Part shown: in pieces, positions 5,877-64,000 of the stretch
Layout of the letters: each line of letters starts with the position of its first letter
Numbering within the stretch: the stretch's first letter is position 1
Source: Eledone cirrhosa
Taxonomy: Eukaryota
Direction of reading: 5' to 3'
DNA: 64,000 bases
Assembly: GCA_964016885.1 (NCBI GenBank)
Contig: OZ024757.1
Span: 25,606,001 to 25,670,000 of the forward strand
Made by a program: the position numbers and the translations under genes
Notes under the pieces: generated by a model
Seen by the model: only the letters and a program-made list of their open reading frames with translations
Databases searched by the model: none
What the model was told of the DNA's origin: nothing

Positions 5877-5881
<5 letters not shown>

Positions 5882-6150
5882 GAGGTTATATTTAATTTGT
5901 TGGGATTCAACAAGCTTAAACATTTTTATAACTAATATAAAGCACTCAACAGCTAGTGGAGTAAATACACAATATATTAATAAATGGAAACTATATTTAT
6001 AAAACCATAATTATTTTATTATATATATTTCAAGGGCGACCAAGGTAAATTATGGCGCGCTTTCATCAGATAAAATACAGATTTGTTTTATAAATAAATA
6101 TTGACATACCCGGAAAAAATACAACCTCAGCGGTTGAAATTCGCTGGATA

Positions 6151-6200: not shown

Positions 6201-6346
6201 GTTATTCCGGGTTGAATCGGAGGTAACCACAGTAAGTAAGGTACTCAATACATTGCAGAGTATAAAAGTTTTAGTATAGATGAGATTCTACAGGACTAGA
6301 ACTGTTTCATTCTTTAGAAATCATCAGGAATCTTGATTCCTGATGA
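6198..6346 (-). mobile_element. Family A element with HHR at 6283-6333; second arm cut after CTGATGA
   Basis: Minus strand reads agattc-CTGATGA-tttctaaagaat-GAA-ACAG-ttctagtc-CTGT-A-gaatct. Stem I is 6 bp, stem III is 4 bp, and the cleavage triplet is GUA. Confidence 0.85.
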
Positions 6347-8870
6347 CATAGTCTCCTCTCTACTGACCAGTCTATTACTGTGTGGTGTGACACAGGACAT
6401 AGTCTCCCCTCTACTGACCAGTCTATTACTGTATGGTGTGACACTGGACATAGTCTCCTCTCTACTGACCAGTCTATTACTGTGTGGTGTGACACAGGAC
6501 ATAGTCTCCCCTCTACTGACCAGTCTATTACTGTATGGTGTGACACTGGACATAGTCTCCTCTCTACTGACCAGTCTATTACTGTGTGGTGTGACACTGG
6601 ACATAGTCTCCCCTCTACTGACCAGTATATTACTGTGTGGTGTGACACTGGACATAGTCTCAGCTCTACTGACCAGTCTATTACTGTGTGGTGTGACACA
6701 GGACATAGTCTCCCCTCTACTAACGAGTATATTACTGTGTGGCGTGACACAGGACATAGTCTCAGCTCTACTGACCAGTCTATTACTGTGTGGTGTGACA
6801 CAGGACATAGTCTCCCCTCTACTGACCAATATATTACTGTGTGGTGTGACACTGGACATAGTCTCCCCTCTACTGACCAGTCTATTACTGTATGATGTGA
6901 CACTGGACATAGTCTCCCCTCTTCTGACCAGTCTATTACTGTGTGGTGTGACACTGGACATAGTCTCCTCTCTACTGACCAGTCTATTACTGTATGGTGT
7001 GACACAGGACATAGTCTCCCCTCTACTGACCAGTCTATTACTGTGTGGTGTGACACAGGACATAGTCTCCCCTCTACTGATCAGTATATTACTGTGTGGT
7101 GTGACACTGGACATAGTCTCCTCTCTACTGACCAGTCTATTACTGTGTGGTGTGACACAGGACATAGTCTCCCCTCTACTAACGAGTATATTACTGTGTG
7201 GTGTGACACAGGACATAGTCTCAGCTCTACTGACCAGTCTATTACTGTGTGGTGTGACACAGGACATAGTCTCCCCTCTACTGACCAATATATTACTGTG
7301 TGGTGTGACACTGGACATAGTCTCCCCTCTACTGACCAGTCTATTACTGTATGATGTGACACTGGACATAGTCTCCCCTCTACTGACCAGTCTATTACTG
7401 TATGGTGTGACACTGGACATAGTCTCCCCTCTACTGACCAGTCTATTACTGTGTGGTGTGACACTGGACATAGTCTCCCCTCTTCTGACCAGTCTATTAC
7501 TGTGTGGTGTGACACTGGACATAGTCTCCCCTCTACTGACCAGTCTATTACTGTATGGTGTGACACTGGACATAGTCTCCCCTCTTCTGACCAGTCTATT
7601 ACTGTGTGGTGTGACACTGGACATAGTCTCCTCTCTACTGACTAGTCTATTACTGTATGGTGTGACACAGGACATAGTCTCCCCTCTACTGACCAGTCTA
7701 TTACTGTGTGGTGTGACACAGGACATAGTCTCCCCTCTACTGATCAGTATATTACTGTGTGGTGTGACACTGGACATAGTCTCCCCTCTACTGACCAGTC
7801 TATTACTGTATGATGTGACACTGGACATAGTCTCCCCTCTTCTGACCAGTCTATTACTGTGTGGTGTGACACTGGACATAGTCTCCCCTCTACTGACCAG
7901 TCTATTACTGTATGATGTGACACTGGACATAGTCTCCCCTCTTCTGACCAGTCTATTACTGTATGGTGTGACACTGGACATAGTCTCCCCTCTACTGACC
8001 AGTCTATTACTGTGTGGTGTGACACTGGACATAGTCTCCCCTCTTCTGACCAGTCTATTACTGTGTGGTGTGACACTGGACATAGTCTCCTCTCTACTGA
8101 CCAGTATATTACTGTATGGTGTGACACTGGACATAGTCTCCCCTCTACTGACCAGTCTATTACTGTATGGTGTGACACAGGACATAGTCTCCCCTCTACT
8201 GACCAGTCTATTACTGTGTGGTGTGACACAGGACATAGTCTCCCCTCTACTGACCAGTCTATTACTGTGTGGTGTGACACTGGACATAGTCTCCCCTCTA
8301 CTGACCAGTATATTACTGTGTGGTGTGACACTGGACATAGTCTCCTCTCTACTGACCAGTCTATTACTGTGTGGTGTGACACTGGACATAGTCTCCCCTC
8401 TACTGACTAGTCTATTACTGTGTGGTGTGACACTGGACATAGTCTCCTCTCTACTGACCAGTCTATTACTGTGTGGTGTGACACAGGACATAGTCTCCCC
8501 TCTACTGACCAGTATATTACTGTGTGGTGTGACACAGGACATAGTCTCCCCTCTACTGACCGGTCTATTACTGTGTGGTGTGACACTGGACATAGTCTCC
8601 TCTCTACTGACCAGTCTATTACTGTGTGGTGTGACACTGGACATAGTCTCCTCTCTACTGACCAGTCTATTACTGTGTGGTGTGACACTGGACATAGTCT
8701 CCCCTCTACTGACCAGTCTATTACTGTGTGGTGTGACACTGGACATAGTCTCCCCTCTACTGACCAGTTTATTACTGTGTTATGTGACACAGGACATAGT
8801 CTCCCCTCTACTGACCAGTTTATTACTGTGTTATGTGACACTGGACATAGTCCCCCCTCTACTGACCAGT
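6345..8870. repeat. 51-bp satellite array 1, about 49 copies
   Basis: Unit gtgacactggacatagtctcccctctactgaccagtctattactgtgtggt. It produces 17-aa periodic ORFs in several frames. Confidence 0.97.
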
Positions 8871-8897
8871 CGTGTATATAAAAGACAACCTTAACGG

Positions 8898-12213: not shown

Positions 12214-12393
12214 GTTATTCCGGGTTGAATCGGAGGTAACCACAGTAAGTAAGGTACTCAATACATTGCAGAGTATAAAAGTTTTAATATAGATGAGATT
12301 CTACAGGACTAGAACTGTTTCATTCTTTAGAAATCATCAGGAATCTCTGATGATTTCTAAAGAATGAAACAGTTCTAGTCCTGTAGAATCTCA

Positions 12394-15442: not shown

Positions 15443-15662
15443 TATATATATATATATATTTCTGTATGTATATATGTATGTATATATATATATATGAATA
15501 TATGTGTATATGTATATATATATATATATATGAATATATGTATGTATGTATATATGTATATATATATATATATATATGAATATATGTATGTATATATATA
15601 TATATATATATATATTTATGTATATATATTTATGTATATATATTTATGTATATATATATATG

Positions 15663-15712
<50 letters not shown>

Positions 15713-15754
15713 TATTTAAAAGAATAGAGGTGTAACACACGAGTTATGATATAT

Positions 15755-16132
15755 TGGTAAAAGGAAAAGAAAATGCTGACAAATTGTTCCCAGTGAAAAA
15801 TAGTTTAATTAGGAATAAGTAAAAATTAGTAATAGTATTGGTTAGTATTCAGTTTTGGTTTTAAGTTTCACCAGTTGCGCATTTCTAATGCTTTTCAAAA
15901 ATAATTTTGAGATAGAGCGCCCGTGATGTTTGCTCTAATCTGATTAGTTTTGGAAATTCTACCTGTTTTATGTAAAAAAAAGTGGCTCCAGATGTATGAA
16001 AAAATTCTTGCGGTCAAAACAATTTTGATTGGTCGGTAGAGGTCATGTGAATGTTAAAAATTGATTTTGCGCCAAATGTAGGTTTGTCTCGGCTGATTGA
16101 GAAGTCACTGAAAAATAAGTCTTTCAAGACAA

Positions 16133-16168
<36 letters not shown>

Positions 16169-16276
16169 TAGTAGTAAAGAGGTTCGTTGTTGTGACAATG
16201 GTCAGCAGGGATGTGTGTGCGGACCGCAGCCTGTTGACAGTTCAAATGCCTATTAAGACAAGTGTGTGTGTATGTG

Positions 16277-16311
<35 letters not shown>

Positions 16312-19300
16312 ATGTGTGTGTGTGTAGTAGAGTAATTCGTGGTAGAGGGATGGTCAGTAGGAATGTGTCTGTACGTGTGTGGGGGATATTTTAACATGTT
16401 AAAATATATTTTTCAGCTCTTGTCTTATACGGAGAAGTGTATGTGTGTGTGTGTATGTCTCTTTGTATGTTAATGTACGCGTGTGTATGTGTGTGTGTAT
16501 ATATGTGTGTGTGTGTGTATATGTGTGTGTGTGGGGGGGGGACCAGTATTTTTGTGATACTGTTAAAAATGGTGTACATTATTCGATATTTTCAGTAAAA
16601 ACGATTCTCTCAATAGAACATCAAAAACTTTAATAATAAAAGGTGTGAAATGATATATAGTATTGGCATAATACCAAGGTGTGTGTGAGTGTCCAGATTG
16701 TACGTACTGCAAGGGGAATCCATTAGGCCTTGCCGTATTGGAATACTTGTGTACAAATATGTATGTGCCCATCAGTGTGCAATGCATATGTGCGTATATG
16801 TATGTGTGTGTGTCGGCACGTTTATATCTATAGACATCAAAAGGTATGCAAATTTGTGTATATTTGTGTTACACCATAGGACATGTGGGTTTACGTATGT
16901 CATTGTGTTTATATGTGGATAGAGATGTATGCTGATGTAGGTATGTATGTTGACGTGTGTATGATGTGGGTTCGTCTTAGGGAGAAGTGTTTAGACGGGG
17001 TCCGTATTTGTTAATAAAGTGAGATTCCTTGCTGATGCGCTGGGTGTGGGTGGCATTATCTTTAAATTTGTAGAGGGGAAAGATTCTGAAGTTGGGATGA
17101 TTTTGGGCGGCACAGGTATCAATGTGTTCACTCAATGGTATTTTCCTGTATTCCCGTATTTTAATTTGGGATCTATGGACAGTCATGCGTTGGCGGAGGC
17201 TGTTTTTGGTCTGGCCTATATATTGTTCTCGACAACCTGAGCAAGTTAATACATATATTAGATTTTCTGATGCGCATGTGAAATTGTGTTTTACTATAAA
17301 AGTTTGTCCTTCTTTGAAATAGAATTCCGAACCCTCTATTAGGTTGATGCATATGACACAGTTGGGTCTATCGCACTTTTTTTACTGTGGGTTTCGTTGT
17401 TGTGGTTGGCAGTACTTTGGCATGTGTTAGGATGTTTTTCATTGACTTAGATTGTCTTTTGCTCTTTATGATATCGTGTGTTCGTAGGATTTGGTTCATT
17501 CTATGGTCCTTTTTCAACACAGGGATGTTCTGGAGGATGGTGTCAAAGGCCTCATTGTTGAGGGGCTTGTGTGTGGAGATGTATGAAAGAGCTTTTAGTT
17601 TCGGTTGATTTACTTTAGGGTGTCTAAGGTCCTGGGTACTGAGTTTTAGGGCACGTTGGATTCCATTGTCAATTAGTGATGCAGGGTAGTCCCTGCCTAT
17701 GAGTGTGTCCTTTAGTTCTTGTAGCCGTAAGTAGCAGGTGTTTTTATTGGAGACTATAGTACAGATACTCTTGGCTAAGTTGTAGGAATATTAATTTTAA
17801 CGTGTCTAGAGTGGCAAGAGTTGAAAGGAAGATATTGCTTGGTGTCTGTGGGCTTGTAGTATATGTCTGTTTCTATTTTTTTTGTTATGGATCTTAATGA
17901 GGATGTCGAGGAAGGGGAGTTGTTGATGGCTGTATTCCATTGTGAAGTTAATATTCGTGTTGAGCCCATTTATAAGGGTGTGAAATTCTTTAAGTTTCTC
18001 GATGTTTTCGTGCCAAAGGATGAAGCAGTCATCTAGATATCGCTTCCAGTTCCTTTCTATGTGTAAGTGGAAAGTGTTTCCAAATTTGTTTAGTACTTTA
18101 GTGTAGAGGGTGATTTCCAGGTATCCCATGACTAGGTTGGCATAAGTGGGAACTGTTTTCGTTCCCATAGCGGTCCCAGAATTCTGCCTGTAGAGTTTGT
18201 TATTGAAAACGAAGTAATTGTTCTCCAAGATAAATTTGAGTCCCTCTATCACGAATTCTTTTTTGATGCGTTGTGGGAGTTCATTGTGGTAATTATTCAG
18301 CCAGAATTGGATAGCTTCTATTCCTAGGTTGTGGGGGATGTTGGAGTATAGGTTGACTACATCGAACGTCACTAGTAAGGTTTGTTCAGAAAGAGGCATA
18401 TTAGGGAGGTGATTGAGCATATCTAGGTCGTCCCTTATATAGCTTTTGATGTGTTTGAGAAAAGGCTTGAGAAGGGTATCAATGAAGTTGCTAAGGCGGT
18501 GGGTTTCGCAAGCGGGGCCTGCTATTATAGGTCTTAATTTGAGATCATTGGGTGAGGGGACATTGATGACTATGTCTGTGGCTTCCTTGCATGCCTTACT
18601 TATTAATTCGCTTTTATGTACTTTAAGGATACCGTAGAAAAGGCTGGATTTACTTGTGAAGTCTGTGATGAAGCTGAATTCCTTGTTAGTGAGTCCTTCT
18701 TTGTATTGGTTGATCAGAGTTTTTAGGTTTCTTATAATTTTCTGTTGATTGTAGTGTTCAGCCTTTTCGTAGTATGTTTCGTTTTCCAAAGTGGAGAGCG
18801 CTAAGTTGATATAGAATTCTGTCTCCATTAGGACTACTGTACTCCCTTTATCAGCCTCTTTAATTGTAATGGTTCTGTCGGTTTTTAAATTATTTAATTC
18901 TTCCCATTCTTTTTTGTTGAGGTTTGGCTTGTGTTTTTGTCTGTGCAAGTATTGGTAAGGGAAGTTTGGGATGTGTTCACAGAATTCGTCCAGGATTTTA
19001 TTTCTACCTTTTGATGGGGTGTAATTGCTTCTATTTCTGGCTAATGATTCATCCTCATTGTACTGGTCGAATAGTTCTTCACTGAGTCGTAACTTTCTAC
19101 AGAAGTCTGTGATGTCTTCCTTCATTTCATAGTAGTTAGGACGTAGTGGAGTCGGTGTGAATTTAAGACCTTTGGAGAGTAAGTTGATAAGGTTGGGTGT
19201 TGGTTCTGGACTAGTAAGATTGATAATTTTTATTACTCTCGGTTTCTCCTCCCTGTCTTGTGTTATTTTGTTTGCCTGTATCTGTGTGCTGTATCTAAAA

Positions 19301-19835
19301 AATGGTTGGGGTAGAGGGGTTGTCTGCTGATGTTAAGTGGTCTCCTGTGTTTGTTATATTCCTTGTTGTTGTAAAATGTGGTTCGGGTTCGTGGTTGTAG
19401 ATTGAATGGGGTGTTCCTATATTGCGAGTATGGATGTGTGTTTCTATGTGCCATGTTGGATTGTGGTATTATAGGTGGCCTACGTTGTTGGTTGTATCGT
19501 GTGGTGTGGCTTTGTTGTGTATTGTGGAAGCGAGAGTTGAGAAAATGGAAATTACCTTGCTGTCTCCTTGAAGCGAGGAAGTTGTTACATCTATCATGGT
19601 GGTGGTATCTTTTCCCTATGTTTGACGATGAGGCATCCGCGTAGTAGTTGAGTGATTTGGTATGGTGTCTCCTTGAAGGGGGAAAGTTGTAATTATTTTT
19701 GAAAAGCATAAGAAATGCGCAACCGGTAAAACTTAAAACCAAAACTGAATACTAACCAATACTATTTTTACTTATTCCTAATTAAACTATTTTTCACTGG
19801 GAACAATTTGTCAGCATTTTCTTTTCCTTTTACCA
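15755..19835 (-). mobile_element. Penelope-like retroelement (Neptune-like) with inverted terminal repeat
   Basis: RT and GIY-YIG coding region on the minus strand. 15755-15906 is inverted relative to 19690-19835. Both outer ends lie at or near TA-rich tracts. Confidence 0.92.
16977..19260 (-). pseudogene. PLE reverse transcriptase + GIY-YIG endonuclease ORF (frameshifted)
   Basis: Motifs in order: LSKGLKFTPTP, KEADKGSTVVL, LRPII, TFDVVNLYSNIP, QNSGTAMG, RYLDDCF, LPFLDI. After a frameshift at the A-run near 17880: TDIYYKPTD...SCH, then CDRPNCVIC...C...LIYVLTCSGC...YIGQT...RQRM..H. Confidence 0.93.
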
Positions 19836-19955: not shown

Positions 19956-19957
<2 letters not shown>

Positions 19958-20140
19958 CGAAGGAAATGTGGTAAGGAACCAGGTGGACCATAACGCACCA
20001 AAGTACTCAATACTTGAGGTAGTAGAGTGGATAATAGGAACGAGTAAGACCCCGACAGCTGAGCTCAAGCCGTTTCGACGGCTAATTCTAGAATTAGCCG
20101 TCGAAACGGCTTGAGCTCAGCTGTCGGGGTCTTACTGGTT

Positions 20141-20145
<5 letters not shown>
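19956..20145. mobile_element. Family B foldback (tail + palindrome centred on TCTAGA at 20087-20092)
   Basis: Arms span 20034-20145 and contain GAAAC-ggcttgagctcagct-GTC. The tail matches 48030-48100 and the reverse complement of 62150-62232. Confidence 0.85.
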
Positions 20146-20212
<67 letters not shown>

Positions 20213-20221
20213 TATATGTAC

Positions 20222-20272
<51 letters not shown>

Positions 20273-20279
<7 letters not shown>

Positions 20280-20931
20280 GACGTAAAATAAGAAAATTTA
20301 AAAAAAATTTTTTTTTTAAATTAACTTACTTAATTTTTCACTCCAACTAATTAGTTTCTGCAATGGGATAAAGACAGTTACGTAATGAACTGTTGAGAAT
20401 TTCATTGCGTCATCAGGGAGATCATTCTCAGCCAAGTCTCCAGGCAATGCGCGGACACTGGGGACTCATATAAAAATAATAATAATTCGGTAAATGGAAC
20501 AGCTATCGAGGACTGGATTCCAGGTATTGAAAATTCTCACTGCTACTGGTCATATGGCCGATTCTAAAGAATCAATCACGTGACACAGAGGCTAGTCAGT
20601 AGGAATGGGATGGTAAGATGACAGACGCCTACTAACACCCCCCAAAAATTTAGAAGTGGTTTTGGCAGGTTTGCTCGACAAATCAGTGATTTGGAGATAA
20701 ATATAGATAATTTAATATATCTGCTAACATAAGCGCACAGATGTACGCCAATGCCAGCAAATACACAGGTTATGTCATAGTACCTAGGTGGTTCAATGCA
20801 GGAGGATGCAGAACAATAATATAAAAGACGTAAAATAAGAAAATTACCTAGGTACTATGACATAACCTGTGTATTTGCTGGCATTGGCGTACATCTGTGC
20901 ACTTATGTTAGTAGATATATAAAATTATCTA

Positions 20932-20932
<1 letters not shown>
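20273..20932 (-). mobile_element. HHR element (HHR at 20341-20420) with 547-nt terminal redundancy and an inverted arm
   Basis: Minus strand reads ctcc-CTGATGA-cgcaatg...cattgca-GAAAC-taatta-GTT-ggag. gacgtaaaataagaaaatt occurs at 20280 and 20827. Inverted arms are 20703-20789 and 20846-20932. Confidence 0.8.
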
Positions 20933-21018
<86 letters not shown>

Positions 21019-24770: not shown

Positions 24771-24898
24771 TTTGGCGTTTGTGCAGTCCAATCTATTTTT
24801 GTATAGTATGTAGTGTGGCAGTCGGCACATGACACTTTCTGGACTGTCCAGCATATTTCGCATAATAAACAGCAAAAGCGAAAAAATATTATATATAT

Positions 24899-25177
24899 AT
24901 GCAGAGGTTATATTTAATTTGTTGGGATTCAACAAGCTTAAACATTTTTATAACTGATATAAAGCACTCAACAGCTAGTGGAGTAAATATACAATATATT
25001 AATAAATGGAAACTATATTTATAAAACCATAATTATTTTATTATATATATTTCAAGGGCGACCAAGGTAAATGATGGTGCGCTTTCATCAGATAAAATAC
25101 AGATTTGTTTTATAAATAAATATTGACACACCCGGAAAAAATACAACCTCAGCGATTGAAATTCGCTGGATAGTGAT
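24899..25177 (-). mobile_element. Family A' element copy 2; HHR at 25034-25099
   Basis: Near-identical to 5877-6155 with the same boundaries. Confidence 0.85.
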
Positions 25178-25204
25178 ATATATATGTATATATATATATA
25201 TATA

Positions 25205-25282
<78 letters not shown>

Positions 25283-25538: not shown

Positions 25539-25696
25539 GGGGAAGGGTGAGGAGCAGACACTAAACCTTTGAAAGGGGGGGGGGGTGTATCTCAGATGCA
25601 TCCTACAGGCAAGATAGTGAAAGTATTACCACGGCAAACAGCCAGCCACACACGCTACACCAGTCACTCCACCTCACTTCAACCCGATTTTGATGT

Positions 25697-28552
25697 GTCA
25701 TGTGACACTGGACATAGTCTCCTCTCTACTGACCAGTCTATTACTGTGTGGTGTGACACAGGACATAGTCTCCTCTCTACTGACCAGTCTATTACTGTAT
25801 GGTGTGACACTGGACATAGTCTCCTCTCTACTGACCAGTCTATTACTGTGTGGTGTGACACAGGACATAGTCTCCTCTCTACTGACCAGTCTATTACTGT
25901 ATGGTGTGACACTGGACATAGTCTCCTCTCTACTGACCAGTCTATTACTGTGTGGTGTGACACAGGACATAGTCTCCTCTCTACTGACCAGTCTATTACT
26001 GTATGGTGTGACACTGGACATAGTCTCCTCTCTACTGACCAGTCTATTACTGTGTGGTGTGACACAGGACATAGTCTCCTCTCTACTGACCAGTCTATTA
26101 CTGTGTGGTGTGACACAGGACATAGTCTCCTCTCTACTGACCAGTCTATTACTGTGTGGTGTGACACAGGACACAGTCTCCTCTCTACTGACCAGTCTAT
26201 TACTGTATGGTGTGACACTGGACATAGTCTCCTCTCTACTGACCAGTCTATTACTGTGTGGTGTGACACAGGACATAGTCTCCTCTCTACTGACCAGTCT
26301 ATTACTGTGTGGTGTGACACTGGACATAGTCTCCCCTCTACTGACCAGTCTATTACTGTATGATGTGACACTGGACATAGTCTACCCTCTACTGACCAGT
26401 ATATTACTGTGTGGTGTGACACTGGACATAGTCTCCCCTCTACTGACCAGTCTATTACTGTATGATGTGACACTGGACATAGTCTACCCTCTACTGACCA
26501 GTCTATTACTAAGTGGTGTGACACTGGACATAGTCCCCCCTATACTGACCAGTCTATTACTGTGTGATGTGACACTGGACATAGTCTCCCCTCTACTGAC
26601 CAGTCTATTACTGTGTGGTGTGACACTGGACATACTCTCCCCTCTACTGACCAGTCTATTACTGTGTGGTGTGACACTGGACATAGTCTCCTCTCTACTG
26701 ACCAGTCTATTACTGTGTGGTGTGACACTGGACATACTCTCCCCTCTACTGACCAGTCTATTACTGTGTGGTGTGACACTGGACATAGTCTCCCCTCTAC
26801 TGACCAGTCTATTACTGTATGGTGTGACACTGGACATAGTCTCCTCTCTACTGACCAGTCTATTACTGTGTGGTGTGACACTGGACATAGTCTCCTCTCT
26901 ACTGACCAGTCTATTACTGTGTGGTGTGACACAGGACATAGTCTCCTCTCTACTGACCAGTCTATTACTGTGTGGTGTGACACTGGACATAGTCTCCCCT
27001 CTACTGACCAGTCTATTACTGTGTGGTGTGACACTGGACATAGTCTCCCCTCTACTGACCAGTCTATTACTGTGTGGTGTGACACTGGACATAGTCTCCC
27101 CTCTACTGACCAGTCTATTACTGTATGGTGTGACACTGGACATAGTCTCCTCTCTACTGACCAGTCTATTACTGTGTGGTGTGACACTGGACATAGTCTC
27201 CCCTCTACTGACCAGTCTATTACTGTGTGGTGTGACACTGGACATAGTCTCCCCTCTACTGACCAGTCTATTACTGTGTGGTGTGACACTGGACATAGTC
27301 TCCCCTCTACTGACCAGTCTATTACTGTATGATGTGACACTGGACATAGTCTCCCCTCTACTGACCAGTATATTACTGTGTGGTGTGACACAGGACATAG
27401 TCTCCTCTCTACTGACCAGTTTATTACTGTGTGGTGTGACACTGGACATAGTCTCCCCTCTACTGACCAGTCTATTACTGTGTGGTGTGACACTGGACAT
27501 AGTCTCCTCTCTACTGACCAGTCTATTACTGTGTGGTGTGACACAGGACATAGTCTCCCCTCTACTGACCAGTCTATTACTGTGTGGTGTGACACTGGAC
27601 ATAGTCTCCTCTCTACTGACCAGTCTATTACTGTGTGATGTGACACAGGACATAGTCTCCCCTCTACTGACCAGTCTATTACTGTATGGTGTGACACTGG
27701 ACATAGTCTCCTCTCTACTGACCAGTCTATTACTGTATGGTGTGACACTGGACATAGTCTCCTCTCTACTGACCAGTCTATTACTGTGTGGTGTGACACT
27801 GGACATAGTCTCCCCTCTACTGACCAGTATATTACTGTGTGGTGTGACACTGGACATAGTCTCCCCTCTACTGACCAGTATATTACTGTGTGGTGTGACA
27901 CAGGACATAGTCTCCTCTCTACTGACCAGTCTATTACTGTGTGGTGTGACACAGGACATAGTCTCCCCTCTACTGACCAGTCTATTACTGTGTTGTGTGA
28001 CACTGGACATAGTCTCCCCTCTACTGACCAGTGTATTACTGTGTGGTGTGACACTGGACATAGTCCCCCCTCTACTGACCAGTATATTACTGTGTGGTGT
28101 GACACAGGACATAGTCTCCTCTCTACTGACCAGTCTATTACTGTGTGGTGTGAAACAGGACTTAGTCTCCCCTCTACTGACCAGTCTATTACTGTGTGGT
28201 GTGTCACAGGACATAGTCTCCCCTCTACTGACCAGTATATTACTGTGTGGTGTGACACTGGACATAGTCTCCTCTCTACTGACCATTATATTACTGTGTG
28301 ATGTGACACTGGACATAGTCTCCCCTCTACTGACCAGTCTATTACTGTGTGATGTGACACTGGACATAGTCTCCCCTCTACTGACCAGTCTATTACTGTG
28401 TGGTGTGACACTGGACATAGTCTCCCCTCTACTGACCAGTATATTACTGTATGGTGTGACACTGGACATAGTCTCCCCTCTACTGACCAGTATATTACTG
28501 TATAGTATATAGTGTGACAGTGGACATTGTCTCCCCTCTACTGACCAGTCTA
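25697..28552. repeat. 51-bp satellite array 2, about 56 copies
   Basis: Same unit and orientation as 6345-8870. Confidence 0.97.
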
Positions 28553-29547
28553 TTTGTGTATGGTATTTATCCTTACAATGTGGACGTAATGGATTCTTTC
28601 ATTTTCCATTCTGATTCTGGACTTTTATATATTTCGGTTACGACCATTGTGGAGCTGGACAATGTGGTCAGTTGCTGCTCCACTTCACGTAGTTTTAGGT
28701 GGGGTGCATCACACCTTGCTGCTGTTTAATGTTGCTGTTGTTGTTTTCTCCTTCGTCAGCATTAAAACTAGCTGACCTATGACCAGTCACATTCCAGCCA
28801 TGACCTTCCCTTCTCTGCAGGAACATCTAGAACTACATTATGGGATGTCTTCTTTCGTTGTTTGAGACGCTAGGTTGTGATTTTAGAAAGAATTTAGCTG
28901 CTACTTCTAGCAAGCTATGCGTTCACAACAACAGTCACAACACCATAGCCATCACCACTACCAACAACAACACCCTCACTACCACTACTAACATCAACAC
29001 CTCCATCAACAACAACAACCACAACACCACCAGAACCAACGACAACAATCACAACACCATTAACACAACAACAACCACGACACCCTCACTACCACAACAA
29101 CAACAAAAAACCAACAACACCAGCATCAACAATAACAACACTTTCACTACCACAACTAACAACACCACTACCACTACCTCCAACAACACCCTCACTACCA
29201 TAACACCCTCACTACCACAACTAACAACACCACCACCACCAACAACAACAACACCACCAACAACACCCTCAACACCACTATTAACAACACCACCAACACT
29301 ATCAACAACACACCCAACCCCACAACTAACAACACCACCACCAACAACACCACCAACAACACCCTCAACACCACTATTAACAACACCACCAACACTATCA
29401 ACAACACACCCAACCCCACAACTAACACCACCACCACTAATATTATCGTGGGAGTGTAATAATCTAAAATTAGACACTGATATCTCGGTCATTCGGTGCA
29501 AAGATTCACTTCCGGTTGATGTTACTTCCGACATGTTTGGGTTGTCT

Positions 29548-32044: not shown

Positions 32045-32234
32045 CGTTATTCCGGGTTGAATCGGAGGTAACCACAGTAAGTAAGGTACTCAATACATAG
32101 CAGAGTATAAAAGTTTTAATATAGATGAGATTCTACAGGACTAGAACTGTTTCATTCATTAGAAATCATCAGAATTCCTGATGATTTCTAATGAATGAAA
32201 CAGTTCTAGTCCTGTAGAATCTCATCTATATTAA

Positions 32235-34534: not shown

Positions 34535-34574
34535 TACAAATATTAATAAAATAGATGTTCTTTTGATCAATTAC

Positions 34575-34627
34575 ATTTTATTATACATATTTCGGAGGTA
34601 CAACAGTACGTCCTCATCAGACAAAAT
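34575..34627 (-). ncRNA. Type I hammerhead ribozyme motif
   Basis: Minus strand reads attttgt-CTGATGA-ggacgtactgttgtacctcc-GAAA-tatgt-ATA-ataaaat, with the canonical G10.1-C11.1 pair. Confidence 0.85.
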
Positions 34628-34730
34628 ATATGATATACATGACATGATATACCCTGAGATGTTAAATGGTTAAGATTTAATCAAGGTAGTAAAACTCATT
34701 CTTTGATATACTCATTGAATCTTGTTTAAC

Positions 34731-34996: not shown

Positions 34997-35027
<31 letters not shown>

Positions 35028-35031
<4 letters not shown>

Positions 35032-35212
35032 GTTTCTACTTTTGGCACAAGGCCAGCAATTACCCAGTACATTACTGGTACTTTATTTTATCGACCCCGT
35101 AAGGATGAAAGGCAAAGTCAACCTCGGCGGGATTTGAACTCAGATCGTAAAGGGATGTAACTATGCTGGAAAGCATGGCGTCCGACCCTCTACCGATACT
35201 GCCAATCCACCG
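35028..35212 (-). mobile_element. SINE S1
   Basis: Reverse complement of the 59712-59907 copy. Confidence 0.8.
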
Positions 35213-45865: not shown

Positions 45866-46178
45866 TAAAATAAAGTTAAATAAAAGTCAAATGATTAAAA
45901 TTTAGCTTCGTTTATTACTGCTATATATATTTCAGTGACAGCCATCTTTGGCTGTGACCTCTTCAGGCAGTTTGAATTAGTATGGTATAGACAAGTACAT
46001 ATGTTGTTTAGGTGTATAATATTGTCAATACTCTGATATGCCCAGTTCCTTGTTGGGTTGTTATTTCATACTAATTCAAACTGCCTGAAGAGGTCACAGC
46101 CAAAGATGGCTGTCACTGAAATATATATAGCAGTAATAAACGAAGCTAAATTTTAATCATTTGACTTTTATTTAACTT

Positions 46179-46185
<7 letters not shown>
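45866..46185. mobile_element. Foldback with 119-bp arms, each holding a complete HHR (45917-45971 minus, 46080-46134 plus)
   Basis: actgc-CTGAAGA-ggtcacagccaaagatggctgtcact-GAAA-tatat-ATA-gcagt. The spacer is 82 bp. Confidence 0.9.
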
Positions 46186-46588: not shown

Positions 46589-46685
46589 ACAGAATCATTA
46601 GCAAATATAGAAAAGATATTTATTTACCAATCCTATGTTCTCATGCACCCTACAGTATGAAGTTACCTCCATATTATATATATAT

Positions 46686-47314
46686 AAGGGCTCAGGATCT
46701 CTTCCCCTTTGAGCACATTACATTATTTACAGGGAATAACGACGGCCTATGCCTCCGTTAATTTATCGTGATATTTCGCTCCTAACAACAGCCTTTCCTA
46801 ACTCTGTTTGGTTGAGCACTCTTCTCTGAGTGGCTTTGGGCTGCCCTTTCTAGCAGTTCGTCTCTCAGAGGCCACTGGTTCACTGCCCTTAAACACGCTG
46901 TGACTTCTCTCTCCCACGTGTAGCTGGACAGTCAATTGTAAAATTCTCTTAGTGTTGTCTGAAATGTATAGCCTTACACACGCTGATGAACCGAGACTAC
47001 CATTTCTTTCAACAAATTTTCTGGTGAAACATATCTCTGGATTTGTACGTGTGTTATATAGTTATAGAGGTATTTATTTACGCTTTAATTTATATTTTTA
47101 ATTATCGTGTCTATAGTCTGCCTTTCATAGGTTATAGATTCCATACACTGGTGGTTTTTTTCCCTGTATTATTGATAACGCACTATATATCTCTCTCTGG
47201 TGTGTTACCTTCTCAACATATTATATTCTAAAGGGCTCAGGATCTCTTCCCCTTTGAGCACATTATTTACAGAGAATAACGACGGCCTATGCCTCCGTTA
47301 ATTTATCGTGATAT
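46686..47314 (+). mobile_element. Retrozyme-like element (family D): about 545-nt unit, about 85-nt terminal direct repeat, HHR at 46976-47054
   Basis: acacacg-CTGATGA-acc...ggt-GAA-ACAtatctctggattTGT-A-cgtgtgt. 46686-46774 matches 47231-47314. TA-tract flanks, no ORF. Confidence 0.8.
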
Positions 47315-51534: not shown

Positions 51535-52414
51535 CGTTATTCCGGGTTGAATCGGAGGTAACCACAGTAAGTAAGGTACTCAATACATAGCAGAGTATAA
51601 CAGTTTTAATATAGATGAGACTCTACAGGACTAGAACTGTTTCATTCATTAGAAATCATCAGGAATCTGGGTATCAAAAAATAAATATGGTATTTATAGG
51701 TCTCTACAAGTGGTAGGAGAGGGTGGGGAGTGGGATGGGTGCAGGTCATTGGTTGATAGAAAAGGGAATTCATTAAAAGCTAATTCTACAAAGCTATAGT
51801 TAATTTTTATTTATATTTATTTATGTTTTTAGAGTAACAAAGGCAGACAGAATTCTATAAACAGGTTCCGGATGGCATACCATTCCTTGTCAATAAGTTT
51901 CTCTTAAGCTAACAGATGTCTATAAAATCAGTGGGGGGTCAGTCATGCTCGATAGAATTAAAGAAAAGGGAGATTCTTTAAAAGCTAAAGTCATTAAGGT
52001 TCTACTAAGTGACAAAGGTCTAGGGAATTCTGCAGACAGATTCAAAATACTGAGTGCATATCTTACTATTATCTTCGAACTTCTCTTAAACTAATCAACA
52101 ATATGCCAAAATCAACAGACACATTCACAAAAAAACAAAAAAAACAAAAAAACAAAAAAACAGAAAAACAAAAAAACACATAAAAAACAAAAAAAACAGA
52201 AAAACATAAATAAATATAAATAAAAATTAACTATAGCTTTGTAGAATTAGCTTTTAATGAATTCCCTTTTCTATCAACCAATGACCTGCACCCATCCCAC
52301 TCCCCACCCTCTCCTACCACTTGTAGAGACCTATAAATACCATATTTATTTTTTGATACCCAGATTCCTGATGATTTCTAATGAATGAAACAGTTCTAGT
52401 CCTGTAGAATCTCA

Positions 52415-55059: not shown

Positions 55060-55367
55060 CATGAAGTAGATATTGTATTTAAGTAAAAACGAAAGCATTA
55101 TAAGGTGTCGTTCAACTGATGAAACATATGATATATTCCTTTGTTCTTTTTTTTCTCTTTTCTCCTTCTGAAAGTTTCTGTCCATGCCGAACACACACGC
55201 ACCCTTACACACACACACACACACACACACTGACACAAACACACACACTCACACACACAAGCACACACACACACACACAGAGGACTATCCTGGTGAATTC
55301 CTTCGAATGAAACAGTTCTAGTCCTGCAGAAGCTATTTCTATATTAAAAACAAGAACTTTACTTATA

Positions 55368-56810
55368 ATTGTTTCTACTTTTTGCACAAGGCCGGCAATT
55401 ATCCCAGTGTATTACTGGTACTTTATTTTATCGGCCCCGTAAGGATGAAAAGCAAAGTTAACCTCGGCGGGATTTGAACTCAGTGCGTAAAGGGACGTAA
55501 CTGTGCTGCAAAGCATGGCGTCCGACTCTCTACCGATACTGCCAATCCATTATATAATGATTTCCGATTTAGGCCAACAGCTTTTTTTTTTTTTTTTTTT
55601 TGAGGAAGAGAATGTTGATTAAATCTACCCCAGTGTATTACTGGTACTTTATTTTATCGACCCCGTAAGGATGAAAGGTAAAAGCTAACCTCGGCTTTGT
55701 GGCTAGAGTATTCGGTTCACGATCGTATTGTGATTTCAATCCCAGTGGTGCGTTGTGTCCTTGAGACCTTCAGCAAGACACTTTATTTCAGGTTGCTCCA
55801 GCCCACTCAGGTGGCAAAAGTGAGTTGTACTTGTAATTCGAAGGACCAGCCTTGTCACACACTGTGTTACACTGAATCTCCCTGAGATCTACATAAAAGG
55901 TACGCGTGTCTATGGAATGTACAGCCACTTGAACGTTAATTTCACGAGCAGGCTGTTCCGTTGATCGGATCAACTGGAACACTCGTCGTCGTAACCGACG
56001 GAGTGCCTCCATTTCCAATCCATATCTTTATTAACAATTTGGTTTTTTTTTTTTTGCTTAACCAAACTGTTTCCTGGCCATAAATATGATTTCTACTTTA
56101 GGCTTAATCTTCGGGGAAAGGGAAGTTGATTAAATCGACCCCAGTACTTAAATAGTATTTTATGTTATTGATTTTGATCAGTGAAGGCGCCATGGCTTAA
56201 AGGTTACCGCTTTGGGCTTACACTCGTGAGGTTGTAAGTTCGATTCCCGGACCGGGTGATGCGTTGTGTCTTTGAGCAAGACACTTTATTTCATTGTTTT
56301 ACATACTTAGTGGTTAGAGAACTGGATTGACAAGTTTGATTCCCGGGGCCAGTGATGTTTTGTGTCGTTCAGCAAACTGTACCTCTTTGCTGTACATATT
56401 TACGGTAGTGGTTAAAGTGTTTGATTTGCAATCGTGAAGTTGTGGGTTTGATTCTCGGATCGAGTGATGCTTTGTGTCTTTGAGCAAGACACTTTATTTC
56501 ACGTTGCTCCAGTTTACTCAGCTGTAGAAATGAGTTTCAACGTCACTGGTGCCAAGCTGTATTGGTCATTGCCTTTCCTTTGGACAATATCGTATATAGT
56601 GTATAATATACTGAACACGTTATACATATAGTGCGTATATAAACTGTACATAATGTATATATAGTGTATCTAGGACTACACTTTTTAATGTACAGTATTG
56701 TAGTTAATGCCTTTCCCTTGGACAACATCGGTCACGTTGAGAGGAGAGACTGGTATGCATGGGTGACTGCTGATCTATAAACAAACCTTGCCCCGACTTG
56801 TACCTCGGAT
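55368..56810. mobile_element. Cluster of S1 and S2-related SINEs
   Basis: S1 (minus) at 55368-55548 and about 55610-55695. tRNA-head SINEs (plus) at about 55698-56010 and 56185-56810. Confidence 0.7.
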
Positions 56811-57022: not shown

Positions 57023-57518
57023 GATAAAAACTCCATGGTTATTTGTAACCGACAGTTGTCTTTACCTTTTACCGTTTATCGGCTGAGAAAAAATGAAAGT
57101 CAGAGTTGTCAATGGCAAGAGTTGAACTCAGCGCTTAAAGAACCGCAAAATAATTGTTTTTACTTTTTGCACAAGGCCAGCAATTACCCCAGTGTATTAC
57201 TGGTACTTTATTTTATCGACCCTATAAGGATGAAAGGCAAAGTTAACCTCGGCGGGATTTGAACTCAGATCATAAACTGCCGTAACTCTATGCTGCAAAG
57301 CATGGCGTCCGACCCTCTACCGACACTGCAAATCCACGTTTTATTTTTTGATCACGTGATATTTACAGTCACGAAACCGTCTGGTAATGTAAAAGTAAGT
57401 CAAACAGTTAATATGGATATTGTCAACTTTCGCTTTACTACGCATTGATACCTCGATTCTTTAGTTTGTATCCATATACACACACACATATATATATATA
57501 TATGTATATATATATGTG

Positions 57519-58129: not shown

Positions 58130-59030
58130 TGGTTTCTGATTTAGGCAGAAGCCAGCAATTTTAGGAGAGGGGAAAGTCGATTAAATCGACCCCAGTGTAA
58201 TTACTGGTACTTTATTTTATCGACCCCGTAAGGATGAAAGGCAAAGTTAACCTCGGCGGGATTTGAACTCAGAACGGCAAGGGCCGTAACTCAATGCGTC
58301 AAAGCATGGTGTCCGACCCTCTACCGATACTGCCAATCCACCACCCTTGGTTTCTGATTTAGGCAGAAGGCCAGCAATTTTAGGAGAGGGGAAAGTCGAT
58401 TAAATCGACCCCAGTGTAATTACTGGTACTTTATTTTATCGACCCCATAAGGAAAGACAAAGCTAACCTTGGCAGGATTTGATCTCAGAACGTAAAGACA
58501 TTTTTTTATTGAAATTTAGACAACATCAACTAGATAGATATGTAGGTAGATACGTAAAGAGCCGTCACTCTATGCCGCTAAATAGGGTGTCCGATGCTCT
58601 ACCGATACGGCCAATTCGCTACCCTACAATAGTAATAATAATAATTGTTTCTACTTTTGGCACAAGGCCAGCAATTACCCAGTGTATTATTGGTACTTTA
58701 TTTTATCGACCCCGTAAGGATGAAAGGCAAAGTTAACCTCGGCAGGATTTAAACTCAGAATGGCAAGGGCCGTAACTCAATGCGTCAAAGCATGGTGTCC
58801 GACCCTCTACCGATACTGCCAATCCACCACCCTTGGTTTCTGATTTAGGCAGAAGGCCAGCAATTTTAGTGGAGGGGAAAGTCGATTAAATCGACCCCAG
58901 TGTGTTACTGGTACTTTATTTTATCGACCCCGTAAGGATGAAAGGTAAATTTAACCTTGGTGGGATTTGAACTCAGAAAGTAAAGAGCAGGAATAAATAT
59001 CACAAAGCAGTTTATCCGACGCTCTAACGA
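58130..59030 (-). mobile_element. Tandem run of four S1 SINE copies
   Basis: Repeated ggtttctgatttaggcagaaggccagcaatt...gtcgattaaatcgacccc...gatttgaactcag. Confidence 0.85.
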
Positions 59031-59711
59031 TTTTATTGGCCAACAGCTGTAACACCAGCAACAACAGCAGTAACAACAACAACAGTAACAACAACAGCAC
59101 TAACAACAACAACAATTTCAATGAAGTAAAAAAAAAAGTCGTGATTGAGAATTAATTAACAGATGCTAAAACATAATGGCGGTTTATTAGAGGTTTGTTG
59201 ATGTTGATGATGATGGGGGGGGGGGGATATTGGTGGTGGTGTATTAGAGGTGTGGTGGTGATGATGATGGTAGTGGTGGTGGGGATGATGCTGGTGGTGG
59301 TGGTGGTGTATTAGAGGTGTGGTGGTGATGATGATGGTGGTGGTGGTGGGGATGATGATGGTGGTGGTGGTGGTGTATTAGAGGTGTGGTGGTGATGATG
59401 ATGGTGGTGGTGGTGGTGGGGATGATGCTGGTGGTGGTGTATTAGAGGTGTGGTGGTGATGGTGTATTAGAGGTGTGGTGGGGATGATGCTGGTGGTGGT
59501 GGTGGTGTATTAGAGGTGTGGTGGTGATGATGATGGTGGTGGTGGTGGGGATGATGTTGGTGGTGGTGGTGGGGTATTAGAGGTGTGGTGGTGATGATGG
59601 TGGTGGTGGGGGTGATGGTGGTGGTGATGGTGTATTAGAGGTGTGGTGGTGGTGGTATTGTTGTTGTTGTTGATGATGGTAATGATGATGATGATGGCAT
59701 TATTACTGTTG

Positions 59712-60167
59712 AGGGCGGTGGATTGGCAGTATCGGTAGAGGGTCGGACGCCATGCTTTGACGCATAGAGTTACGCCCCTTGCCATTCTGAGTTCAAATCG
59801 CGCCGAGGTTAACTTTGCCTTTCATCCTTACGGGGTCGATAAAATAAAGTACCAGTAATGCACTGGGCACTGGGGTAATTGCTGGCCTTGTGCCAAAAGT
59901 AGAAACAATTATTACTGTTGTTATTATTGGTGATGATGATGATGATAGTGGTATTATTACTGTTGTTGTTATTGATGATGATGATGATGATGATGATGAT
60001 AGTTTTACTGTTGTTATTGATGATGATGATGATGATGATAGTTTTACTGTTGTTATTGATGATGATGATGATAGTTTTACTGTTGTTATTGATGATGATG
60101 ATGATGATGATAGTTTTAATGTTGTTATTGATGATAATGATGATGATGATAGTTTTACTGTTGTTAT

Positions 60168-60204
<37 letters not shown>

Positions 60205-60450
60205 AGTGTTACTGTTGTTGATGGTGTTACTCGATAGAGAGTCGAAAGAATCCAACAGGAAGAACGAAGACAGCAACATTTCCCAGAGAGTCGGACGCCA
60301 TGCTTTGACGCATACACTTACGTCCCTTTATGATCTGAGTTCAAATCCTGCCGAGGTTAACTTTGCCTTTCATCCTTACGGGGTCGATAAAATAAAGTAC
60401 CAGTAATGCACTGGTTAATTGCTGGCCTTGTGCCAAAAGTAGAAACAATT
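59712..60450 (+). mobile_element. Two S1 SINE copies separated by a (GAT)n compound repeat
   Basis: Copies at 59712-59907 and about 60288-60450. Confidence 0.8.
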
Positions 60451-60640
60451 ATTAACTGTGAAAAAGTCATCCTGAATATTGGTCAACTCCCAGAAACGAA
60501 TGAAACCCCAGAAATAAAAAGCAGAAAGAAATAAGAAAAAAAAAAAAAAAAACGAGGGACAGACAAGACACGACTTCTTCTGTCTTCTAACATAACAATT
60601 ATGTCAATGATGCAAGGAGAACACGTGACATACTTCTGTC

Positions 60641-62620: not shown

Positions 62621-62917
62621 GGGGATTTCTTTCTTCGTTTCTGTGCCTTTCCTTTCTTCTATCCTACGCCATTTTGTTTGTGTGTGGGTTGCGTGCTCAG
62701 TTTGCGCATGCGCCACATCCGGGTGTCTGTGTGTGTTTGTGTTCATTTTTCTATTTTTCTATTTATATTTGTTTGTTTATTTATTTATTTATTGTTGGTT
62801 GGTTGTTTGTTCTATGTGTGTGTGTGTTTTCATTTTGTCTTGTGTGTGTTTTCATTTTGTGTGTGTTTTCAATTGTAAGTTGTTTGTTCTATGTGTGTGT
62901 GTGTTTTCATTTTGTCC

Positions 62918-63437
62918 TTAATTGTAAGTTGTGATGTTGCTGTTCCACTCATATTTTCTATTTAATTTTGGTTTTAATTCTTTTATGCTTACTGCCTCTG
63001 TAATTTGCCTAAACATTGCGTCTTTCTTGTGTGTGGATTCTATTTTTATTTCTATGCTCTCTAATTTACCCCTGTGTTCTATCTTAGCATGTTGGTAGAG
63101 CACAGATGATTCTTTACTATCTTGGAGGTCTCGCCAGTGTTCATTTATTCGTTCCCCTATACTACGAGCTGTCTCACCTATGTACACTATATTTTTGTTT
63201 CTACATTGTCCTTCAGTACATCTTATGCTATATACTACATTTCTAGTTTTACAGTTAATATGGGGGCTTATTTTACAGGTTATACATTTCTTATCTATAC
63301 ATGAGGGTCTTTGGAACGGGTATGTCTTGCTAATAAGTGTTTTTACGGAGGTACCAGGTCTTTCTACTATCTTAATATTGAGATTATGTTTCTTTAGGGC
63401 CCTTCTAAATTTGTAGGCTAGTTCGCCTCTAGGGGTT
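62918..63437 (-). pseudogene. PLE C-terminal Cys-rich linker + GIY-YIG endonuclease (left arm)
   Basis: Mirror image of 63444-63963. Confidence 0.88.
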
Positions 63438-63443
63438 GTATTG

Positions 63444-63963
63444 AACCCCTAGAGGCGAACTAGCCTACAAATTTAGAAGGGCCCTAAAGAAACATAATCT
63501 CAATATTAAGATAGTAGAAAGACCTGGTACCTCCGTAAAAACACTTATTAGCAAGACATACCCGTTCCAAAGACCCTCATGTATAGATAAGAAATGTATA
63601 ACCTGTAAAATAAGCCCCCATATTAACTGTAAAACTAGAAATGTAGTATATAGCATAAGATGTACTGAAGGACAATGTAGAAACAAAAATATAGTGTACA
63701 TAGGTGAGACAGCTCGTAGTATAGGGGAACGAATAAATGAACACTGGCGAGACCTCCAAGATAGTAAAGAATCATCTGTGCTCTACCAACATGCTAAGAT
63801 AGAACACAGGGGTAAATTAGAGAGCATAGAAATAAAAATAGAATCCACACACAAGAAAGACGCAATGTTTAGGCAAATTACAGAGGCAGTAAGCATAAAA
63901 GAATTAAAACCAAAATTAAATAGAAAATATGAGTGGAACAGCAACATCACAACTTACAATTAA
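63444..63963 (+). pseudogene. PLE C-terminal Cys-rich linker + GIY-YIG endonuclease (right arm, 5'-truncated)
   Basis: Open frame TPRGELA...IKIVERPG...PF...CIDKKCITC...CKTRNVVYSIRC...C...VYIGETARSIGERINEH...RQITEAV..KELKPKLNRKYEW. Confidence 0.9.
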
Positions 63964-64000
63964 GGACAAAATGAAAACACACACACACATAGAACAAACA

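Follow-up and report, generated by a model that had tools for sequence, protein, structure and literature searches.

A young hammerhead-bearing repeat of Eledone cirrhosa, likely copied in trans by a Penelope-like element from a unit-length RNA

Introduction

Animal non-LTR retrozymes have been described as tandem units with type I hammerhead ribozymes, which are expressed as circles and for which a dependence on elements of the Penelope-like kind (PLEs) is proposed (PMC7229834; 10.64898/2026.07.22.740005). In the latter source only one of nine tested dimers was cleaved. PLEs themselves are known for partial tandem and inverted 5' copies, for a tail that is confined to one end and for insertion into (TA)n targets (PMC8557442, PMC3846280), and pairing of a palindromic loop III between two ribozymes, as a dimer, has been described for animal type I hammerheads (PMC4209133). 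With the Poseidon PLE of the green anole it was reported that, in vitro, the protein nicks and extends both strands of its target and starts at two internal sites; these start sites are the same for both strands and have no homology to the target, and insertion takes place without need for cleavage (PMC11167929).

Here we analyse a repeat found in a 64,000-nt stretch of the Eledone cirrhosa genome (contig OZ024757.1), called the window below. The class of this element is already known: it is a young non-autonomous Penelope-type retrozyme. As in the animal non-LTR retrozymes described so far, we found non-coding units in head-to-tail order with one type I hammerhead per unit and at least two hammerheads in tandem copies, a low G+C content (37%) and no LTR; a PLE dependence and a circular template are proposed for both. 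The unit is longer than the 150-450 nt given in PMC7229834 and falls inside the 51-972 nt over which published retrozyme units span in 10.64898/2026.07.22.740005. Unlike those elements as they are described, the present family consists mostly of dispersed insertions of 1-3 units that lie in (TA)n and have inverted arms as well as fixed ends; its predicted hammerhead has an atypical long stem II.

The family also resembles the endonuclease-containing PLEs and their non-autonomous forms: 5' truncation, partial tandems and an inverted 5' copy occur, the tail is confined to one end, and the target is AT-rich and a microsatellite, (TA)n (PMC8557442, PMC3846280). Its hammerhead, like those of PLEs, has a palindromic loop III and one additional base ahead of stem II (PMC4209133). 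It differs from these elements, as they are described in these sources, in that it has no reading frame, is made of repeated laps of one small unit and has a tail of about 120 nt instead of 30-40, and in that no homology to a coding PLE was found among the loci compared.

Results

Layout of the copy in the window

The features of the copy are collected in Table 1. An initial annotation, made from the sequence alone, had described a hammerhead with palindromic loop III, a 19-nt exact direct repeat at 547-nt spacing, an 87-bp inverted arm joined at ACCTAGGT and the absence of similarity to another hammerhead family of the window, family D. We confirmed these four observations. The hammerhead, the only one in this copy, is of type I and lies on the minus strand; the 19-nt repeat (20280-20298 and 20827-20845) belongs to a 27-nt repeat with one mismatch (20272-20298 and 20819-20845); ACCTAGGT, at 20846, opens the inverted arm, which shows 3 mismatches in its first 87 nt and 5 in the 93 nt that lead to 20938, where it runs into (TA)n; and comparison of the doubled units with those of family D gave a best blastn E value of 1.8.

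The wider meaning given to two of these features did not survive the comparison with other loci. The 5' ends are scattered among the family loci, and the 19-nt overlap merely marks where the long arm of this copy stopped. As to ACCTAGGT, which we considered as a family junction and rejected, the word is internal to the unit and this palindrome is missing from the aligned sister subfamilies, and arms overlap by 0-4 nt in 18 of 31 pairs. Neither the 19-nt repeat nor the junction at ACCTAGGT is a family trait; both arose by accident in the window copy.

Table 1. Features of the hammerhead repeat and of the comparison copy, in window positions
Feature	Position	Strand	Remarks
(TA)n tract, left flank (putative target)	20144..20275		ragged 5' ends, too, abut TA in 18 of 24 non-inverted family loci
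Long arm, made of one 547-nt unit and an overlap of 27 nt, with its 3' end at fixed site 1	20272..20845	-	locus L001
Fixed 3' end, site 1 (putative RT start site), where a TATAT word leads into (TA)n	20272..20282	-	43 of 93 segments; same place in sisters
TAAG repeat, with 2 copies in this element, and A/T tract	20296..20333	-	predicted hairpin; not constant between laps of a locus
Type I hammerhead, palindromic loop III, long stem II	20341..20420	-	predicted cut 20345/20344
GAGAA, candidate pseudoknot partner of the stem II UUCUC loop	20426..20430	-	weak basis
Internal copy of fixed site 2, inside the long arm	20697..20703	-	
Short arm, covering unit positions 38 to about 130 and facing the long arm head-to-head; its 3' end is at fixed site 2	20846..20938	+	
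(TA)n tract, right flank	20935..21014		
Family D copy (comparison), 539-nt unit	46685..47314	+	different hammerhead at 46976-47054; same two-site anatomy

A young family and its sisters

A search of the 3.0-Gb genome with the whole unit returned 1386 candidate places, the best 40 of which are about 97-98% identical. An exact 25-mer of the ribozyme has 838 matches in the genome and its reversed control none; two looser ribozyme patterns gave 10,357 and 499 matches, vs 0 and 1 for the reversed controls, that is about 10,900 for the wider clade. This is a young, non-coding family of hundreds of copies, and not a chance pattern. Within it the cut-to-cut length is 541-558 nt (39 intervals, some from overlapping loci), the G+C content of the unit is 36-39% and the longest ATG frame has 29 codons' worth of protein (29 aa). 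The matches to the looser patterns belong to sister subfamilies, which are about 70% identical across the unit's full length; their units measure 507-530 nt, their periods reach 553 nt, and at this identity they retain the whole unit and both 3' ends. No RT or GIY-YIG frame was found between the repeats in the copies examined, where matches to PLE proteins are confined to the flanks. No LTR pair was found, and the hammerhead topology is type I, unlike that of the plant-type LTR retrozyme (type III, in the LTRs). Pieces of the unit are also present (presence only) in contigs of four sequencing runs, including two with other organism labels.

One sister array, at L219-L220 (C1 152.4927-152.4994 Mb), holds 13 ribozymes at a spacing of 527-532 nt; its 12.6 units end at site 2 in (TA)n and are mostly 89-96% alike, and the likeness of units 6/10 and 7/11 (98-99%) points to a later block duplication.

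The ribozyme

On the minus strand we observed the hammerhead elements CUGAUGA, a 6-bp stem II and GAAAC-UAAUUA-GUU. When 22 copies were aligned, 90.6% of the cells of this structure were paired and 7 of its 24 pairs showed double changes, both values above all slid controls, so the stems of the ribozyme covary. The sisters had been found via the core pattern and the invariance of the core is therefore partly built in, which is not so for the covariation of stem II. The core is intact in 95 of 100 passages. Loop III pairs with itself as a dimer at -9.0 kcal/mol and not at all as a monomer hairpin. The base of stem II is atypical, with C opposite A, and free folding produced a structure without stems I and III (z -0.38). 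Rfam does not detect this hammerhead: at the gathering score the window gave no match, and with E up to 10 only hairpin-type chance matches. The GAGAA/UUCUC pairing, a candidate pseudoknot, is paired in 80.9% of cells of a partly shifted alignment, with no double changes. Our scan found hammerheads in one polarity only; other ribozyme types were screened through Rfam only. Self-cleavage at 20345/20344 is predicted from this structure.

Two fixed ends, one for each arm

For the analysis of insertions we fetched 60 loci with two queries, the whole unit and a 71-nt piece, and dropped 6 overlapping ones, which left 54 non-redundant loci. Long copies are more readily picked up by the whole-unit query; among the 25 loci of the short query, 14 are inverted. 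Among the 93 segments of the 54 loci, 85 end at one of two fixed 3' sites (43 at site 1 and 42 at site 2), which are about 120 nt apart and each enter (TA)n via a TATAT word, while the 5' ends are ragged. Circular permutation, taken to mean random start points, is not supported, as the 3' ends are fixed at two sites. In the first 30 loci the 5' ends seemed to gather close to the end of the unit; this was discarded as query bias, and the analysis was redone with the short query and an exposure model.

The copies are head-to-tail concatemers of up to 3 units: more than one unit is contained in 49 of the 93 segments and more than two in 8, the longest having 1645 nt. Both orientations are present in 30 of the 54 loci. 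At 18 of the 24 non-inverted loci TA stands on the ragged 5' side too, which suggests that a (TA)n tract is likely the target. When the 31 head-to-head pairs were scored for the sites at which their arms end, 25 were mixed, 2 had the same site twice and 4 were unscorable (p 3e-6); for the 15 pairs of family D the numbers were 13, 0 and 2, respectively. The copies show one end per arm. The arms meet with an overlap of 0-4 nt in 18 of the 31 pairs. The inverted arm had been read as a foldback signature; this fails in L141 and L143, in which each arm holds sequence absent from the other and neither contains the other.

One haplotype per insertion

We compared segments at 21 shared polymorphic sites. 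Differences between arms of the same locus were seen in 3 of 450 comparisons and between tandem laps in 6 of 554 (1.1%), these pair counts being non-independent, and the difference between loci is 37%; 7 of 587 locus-by-site cells are discordant. The 49 full segments fall into 22 haplotypes, and where an arm pair could be compared at 8 or more sites (15 pairs), no more than 0-21% of the other segments match equally well. Each insertion carries one haplotype. Since each of the 22 haplotypes is fixed in every lap, a single unit seems to have been read repeatedly, i.e. through a monomer bottleneck; copying of a long linear array is disfavoured, because such a template would yield mixed laps. We consider it very likely that a unit-length monomer is read repeatedly, and likely, with only slightly less assurance, that two primings take place on one template; one haplotype per insertion would also be expected from two RNAs of one source locus. 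Of the earlier proposal of a second circular-RNA-derived family, the parts that stand are that it is unrelated to family D, that its length is conserved, that copies extend beyond one unit and that the haplotypes need a unit-length template that is read repeatedly; the covalent circle itself is a more tentative part.

The cut site and the TAAG stretch

The 14-mer around the cut site is exact in 100 of 107 passages, and we counted 1 stop at the cut site in 46 passes, where 1.7 were expected. The cut site is passed with no stop or error of its own, and such a traceless site is compatible with a ligated circle, or with a jump that is very clean. A cleaved linear monomer copied without jumping was rejected: in 108 cut-site passages, one 5' end lies within 3 nt.

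Past the cut site, at a distance of 14-25 nt, lies the TAAG repeat, whose copy number is 2 or 3 and is drawn at random in each lap. Its count agrees in 25 of 52 within-locus pairs, vs 25.8 by shuffling (76 passages were parsed and the pattern missed others), and the adjoining A/T tract likewise differs per lap. A control tract elsewhere in the unit follows the locus, with agreement in 8 of 11 pairs where 2.7 were expected. Stops in the TAAG/A-T stretch are about twofold in excess (16 vs 8.6; p 0.01, uncorrected over 6 bins). The redrawing of the TAAG count and the variation of the A/T tract imply that a closed circle is not copied faithfully in that stretch; these data fit hairpin slippage on a 3-copy circle and a two-register jump alike. 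In family D, no indel within 6 nt of the cut was seen in 47 passages and no randomised tract was found. Between a closed circle and template jumps, we lean somewhat towards the circle. Folding energy was set aside as support for it: the unit folded as a circle has z -6.6 (40 shuffles), and a linear PLE 3' region used as control scores equally, z -6.6.

Other hammerhead families and the question of size

Family D was identified with the repeat at about 46685-47314, since no further hammerhead family of the window has a period of about 540 nt; its unit is 538-542 nt in 29 of 30 loci. A shared size constraint, which had been suggested, is not established: only two independent lineages lie near 540 nt, the sisters span 507-553 nt, and families A, B and C have no period near 540 nt.

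Family A (6283-6333, 12295-12347, 32174-32220, 51618-51668 and 52362-52412) is the end repeat of a coding PLE, which we take to be Hydra-like. The frame begins just after the ribozyme in L064 and L080; the copies share an upstream stretch over 1.4 kb and have two ends about 96 nt apart. Families B and C (5880-6150 and 24886-25220; 45866-46185) are short, with two fixed 3' ends, inverted arms, no tandem period and 5' ends clustered upstream of the ribozyme, as seen in query-biased samples; a longer upstream form is common to 4 of 20 loci of family B. Their templates are likely linear, in contrast to the present family. Two further type I hammerheads with palindromic loop III, at 1055-1125 and 34572-34630, adjoin TA tracts.

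Penelope-like elements in the neighbourhood

Coding PLEs are abundant in this genome. Set in (TA)n, they likewise have two ends and an inverted arm, and many open frames of 784 aa occur among them. One copy lies beside the element, at about 15590-19835 on the minus strand, and is a frameshifted member of a young coding family with RT, a CX4CX2C linker as in Neptune/Nematis, and GIY-YIG; many copies of that family keep the 784-aa frame, and some have an overlapping upstream frame of 455 aa. The two ends of the neighbouring PLE are about 33 nt apart, its inverted arm is at 19691-19835, and no CUGANGA was found near its ends. We looked for a coding partner among the neighbour family, family A and GIY-YIG fragments, and found none; over three coding families and flanking fragments, only weak AT-rich matches to the unit were obtained. 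A relaxed ribozyme pattern used for the same purpose gave 35 matches, all clade members by eye. With high confidence we regard the element as PLE-dependent and non-autonomous.

Other repeats were noted in the window. A short PLE-like end with a CGAAAC motif and a near-perfect 49-bp foldback (20043-20140) lies between TA tracts at 19957-20140, and a near-perfect palindrome (99.6%) of 1120 nt at 62881-64000 carries a GIY-YIG frame in each of its arms. A 51-nt minisatellite forms two arrays, at 6345-8871 and 25694-28564, which are about 95% alike. A dispersed SINE-like repeat with many copies is present at 35026-35211, 55365-55695, 57149-57337, 58130-59031 and 59712-60459.

Discussion

The reading that we prefer, with somewhat better than even confidence, is that this hammerhead repeat is copied in trans by a PLE RT-endonuclease from one unit-length RNA, probably a circle made by the ribozyme. 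Tandem copies would be transcribed, two hammerheads would pair via their palindromic loops III and release a monomer, and this monomer would be ligated. A PLE protein, probably a dimer, would nick both strands of a (TA)n tract, and each DNA end would prime at a different start site of the same RNA, the two sites being about 120 nt apart, with the possible aid of a 4-5-nt TATAT match. Each cDNA would have a variable length, often more than one lap, and the two ragged cDNA ends would be joined with an overlap of 0-4 nt. For the window copy, the long arm would come from site 1 (1.04 laps) and the short arm from site 2 (about 90 nt).

In the twin priming of L1, one RNA is used by two primers, which gives an inverted 5' arm, and the second primer lands variably, next to the end of the first cDNA. 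Unlike there, both start sites are fixed in the present family and both arms can exceed one unit. With Poseidon, as it is described in PMC11167929, our family would have in common two internal start sites that define a tail, cutting and extension of both strands, an AT-rich target and a predicted dimer; it departs from Poseidon in that the arms take different sites, each with a TATAT word.

Several other explanations have to be weighed. The most serious, which we nevertheless find doubtful, keeps the PLE and the twin priming but places them on a linear monomer, extra laps arising by jumps from the 5' end to the 3' end, with the break either at the cut site or in the TAAG/A-T hairpin. The TAAG count, redrawn per lap with only 2 or 3 copies seen, the A/T tract that changes per lap and the twofold excess of stops in that stretch are what such jumps could leave behind. 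Yet the cut site is free of errors and stops and lies at a distance of 14-55 nt from the odd stretch, family D has neither cut-site indels (47 passages) nor a randomised tract, and a circle with a 3-copy template and frequent one-copy hairpin skips explains the same data. It is improbable that the inverted arm is instead a foldback, in which one cDNA (or an antisense RNA) primes itself at a palindrome and is copied back. Self-priming has been proposed for PLE inversions (PMC3846280), a common haplotype of both arms would be expected from it, and a few junctions do lie within an A/T palindrome (L009, L132, L148); against this, the arms of L141 and L143 each have sequence missing from the other, the outer arm ends are two different fixed sites, and most junctions have a 0-4 nt overlap without palindrome.

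We give still less credit to templates without any monomer or circle, namely long linear read-through transcripts of tandem arrays or orphan pLTRs of a coding PLE, even though the sister array of 13 ribozymes with its 527-532 nt spacing could supply such transcripts and insertion in vitro is independent of cleavage (PMC11167929). The units of this array are mostly 89-96% alike vs a lap difference of 1.1% and shared haplotypes in young insertions, the 22 haplotypes are each fixed across laps, and no examined copy continues into a PLE frame. The least credible of all is an infectious viroid-like circular RNA that replicates from RNA to RNA and is captured in the genome incidentally: the unit is indeed structured, non-coding and ribozyme-bearing, with many haplotypes, but the scan found the hammerhead in one polarity only, and about 10,900 genomic motif matches, with PLE-type ends kept across sisters of 70% identity, speak against it.

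If the preferred reading is extended beyond this family, one may imagine a rolling-circle insertion by two enzymes, with a PLE dimer seated on one hammerhead-made circle, one fixed start site per target strand and both halves circling it, as a general origin of pLTR, tail and inverted arm, and unrelated circles converging on about 510-560 nt as a result of this machinery; we put this forward tentatively, as a possibility that we think less likely to be right than wrong.

In a literature search over openly accessible main texts, we found neither a strict footprint of one site per arm and one haplotype, nor a paper linking twin priming to PLE repeats or to retrozymes. The mechanism by which PLEs make tandem, inverted and tailed insertions, and the role of retrozyme circles as templates, are questions raised in PMC8557442, PMC7229834, PMC11167929 and 10.64898/2026.07.22.740005. 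To these questions the family offers a countable DNA record of insertion, with one start site per arm, one haplotype and a traceless cut site; as a 550-nt non-coding substrate with mapped start sites, it makes the question of circle versus jump directly testable in vitro.
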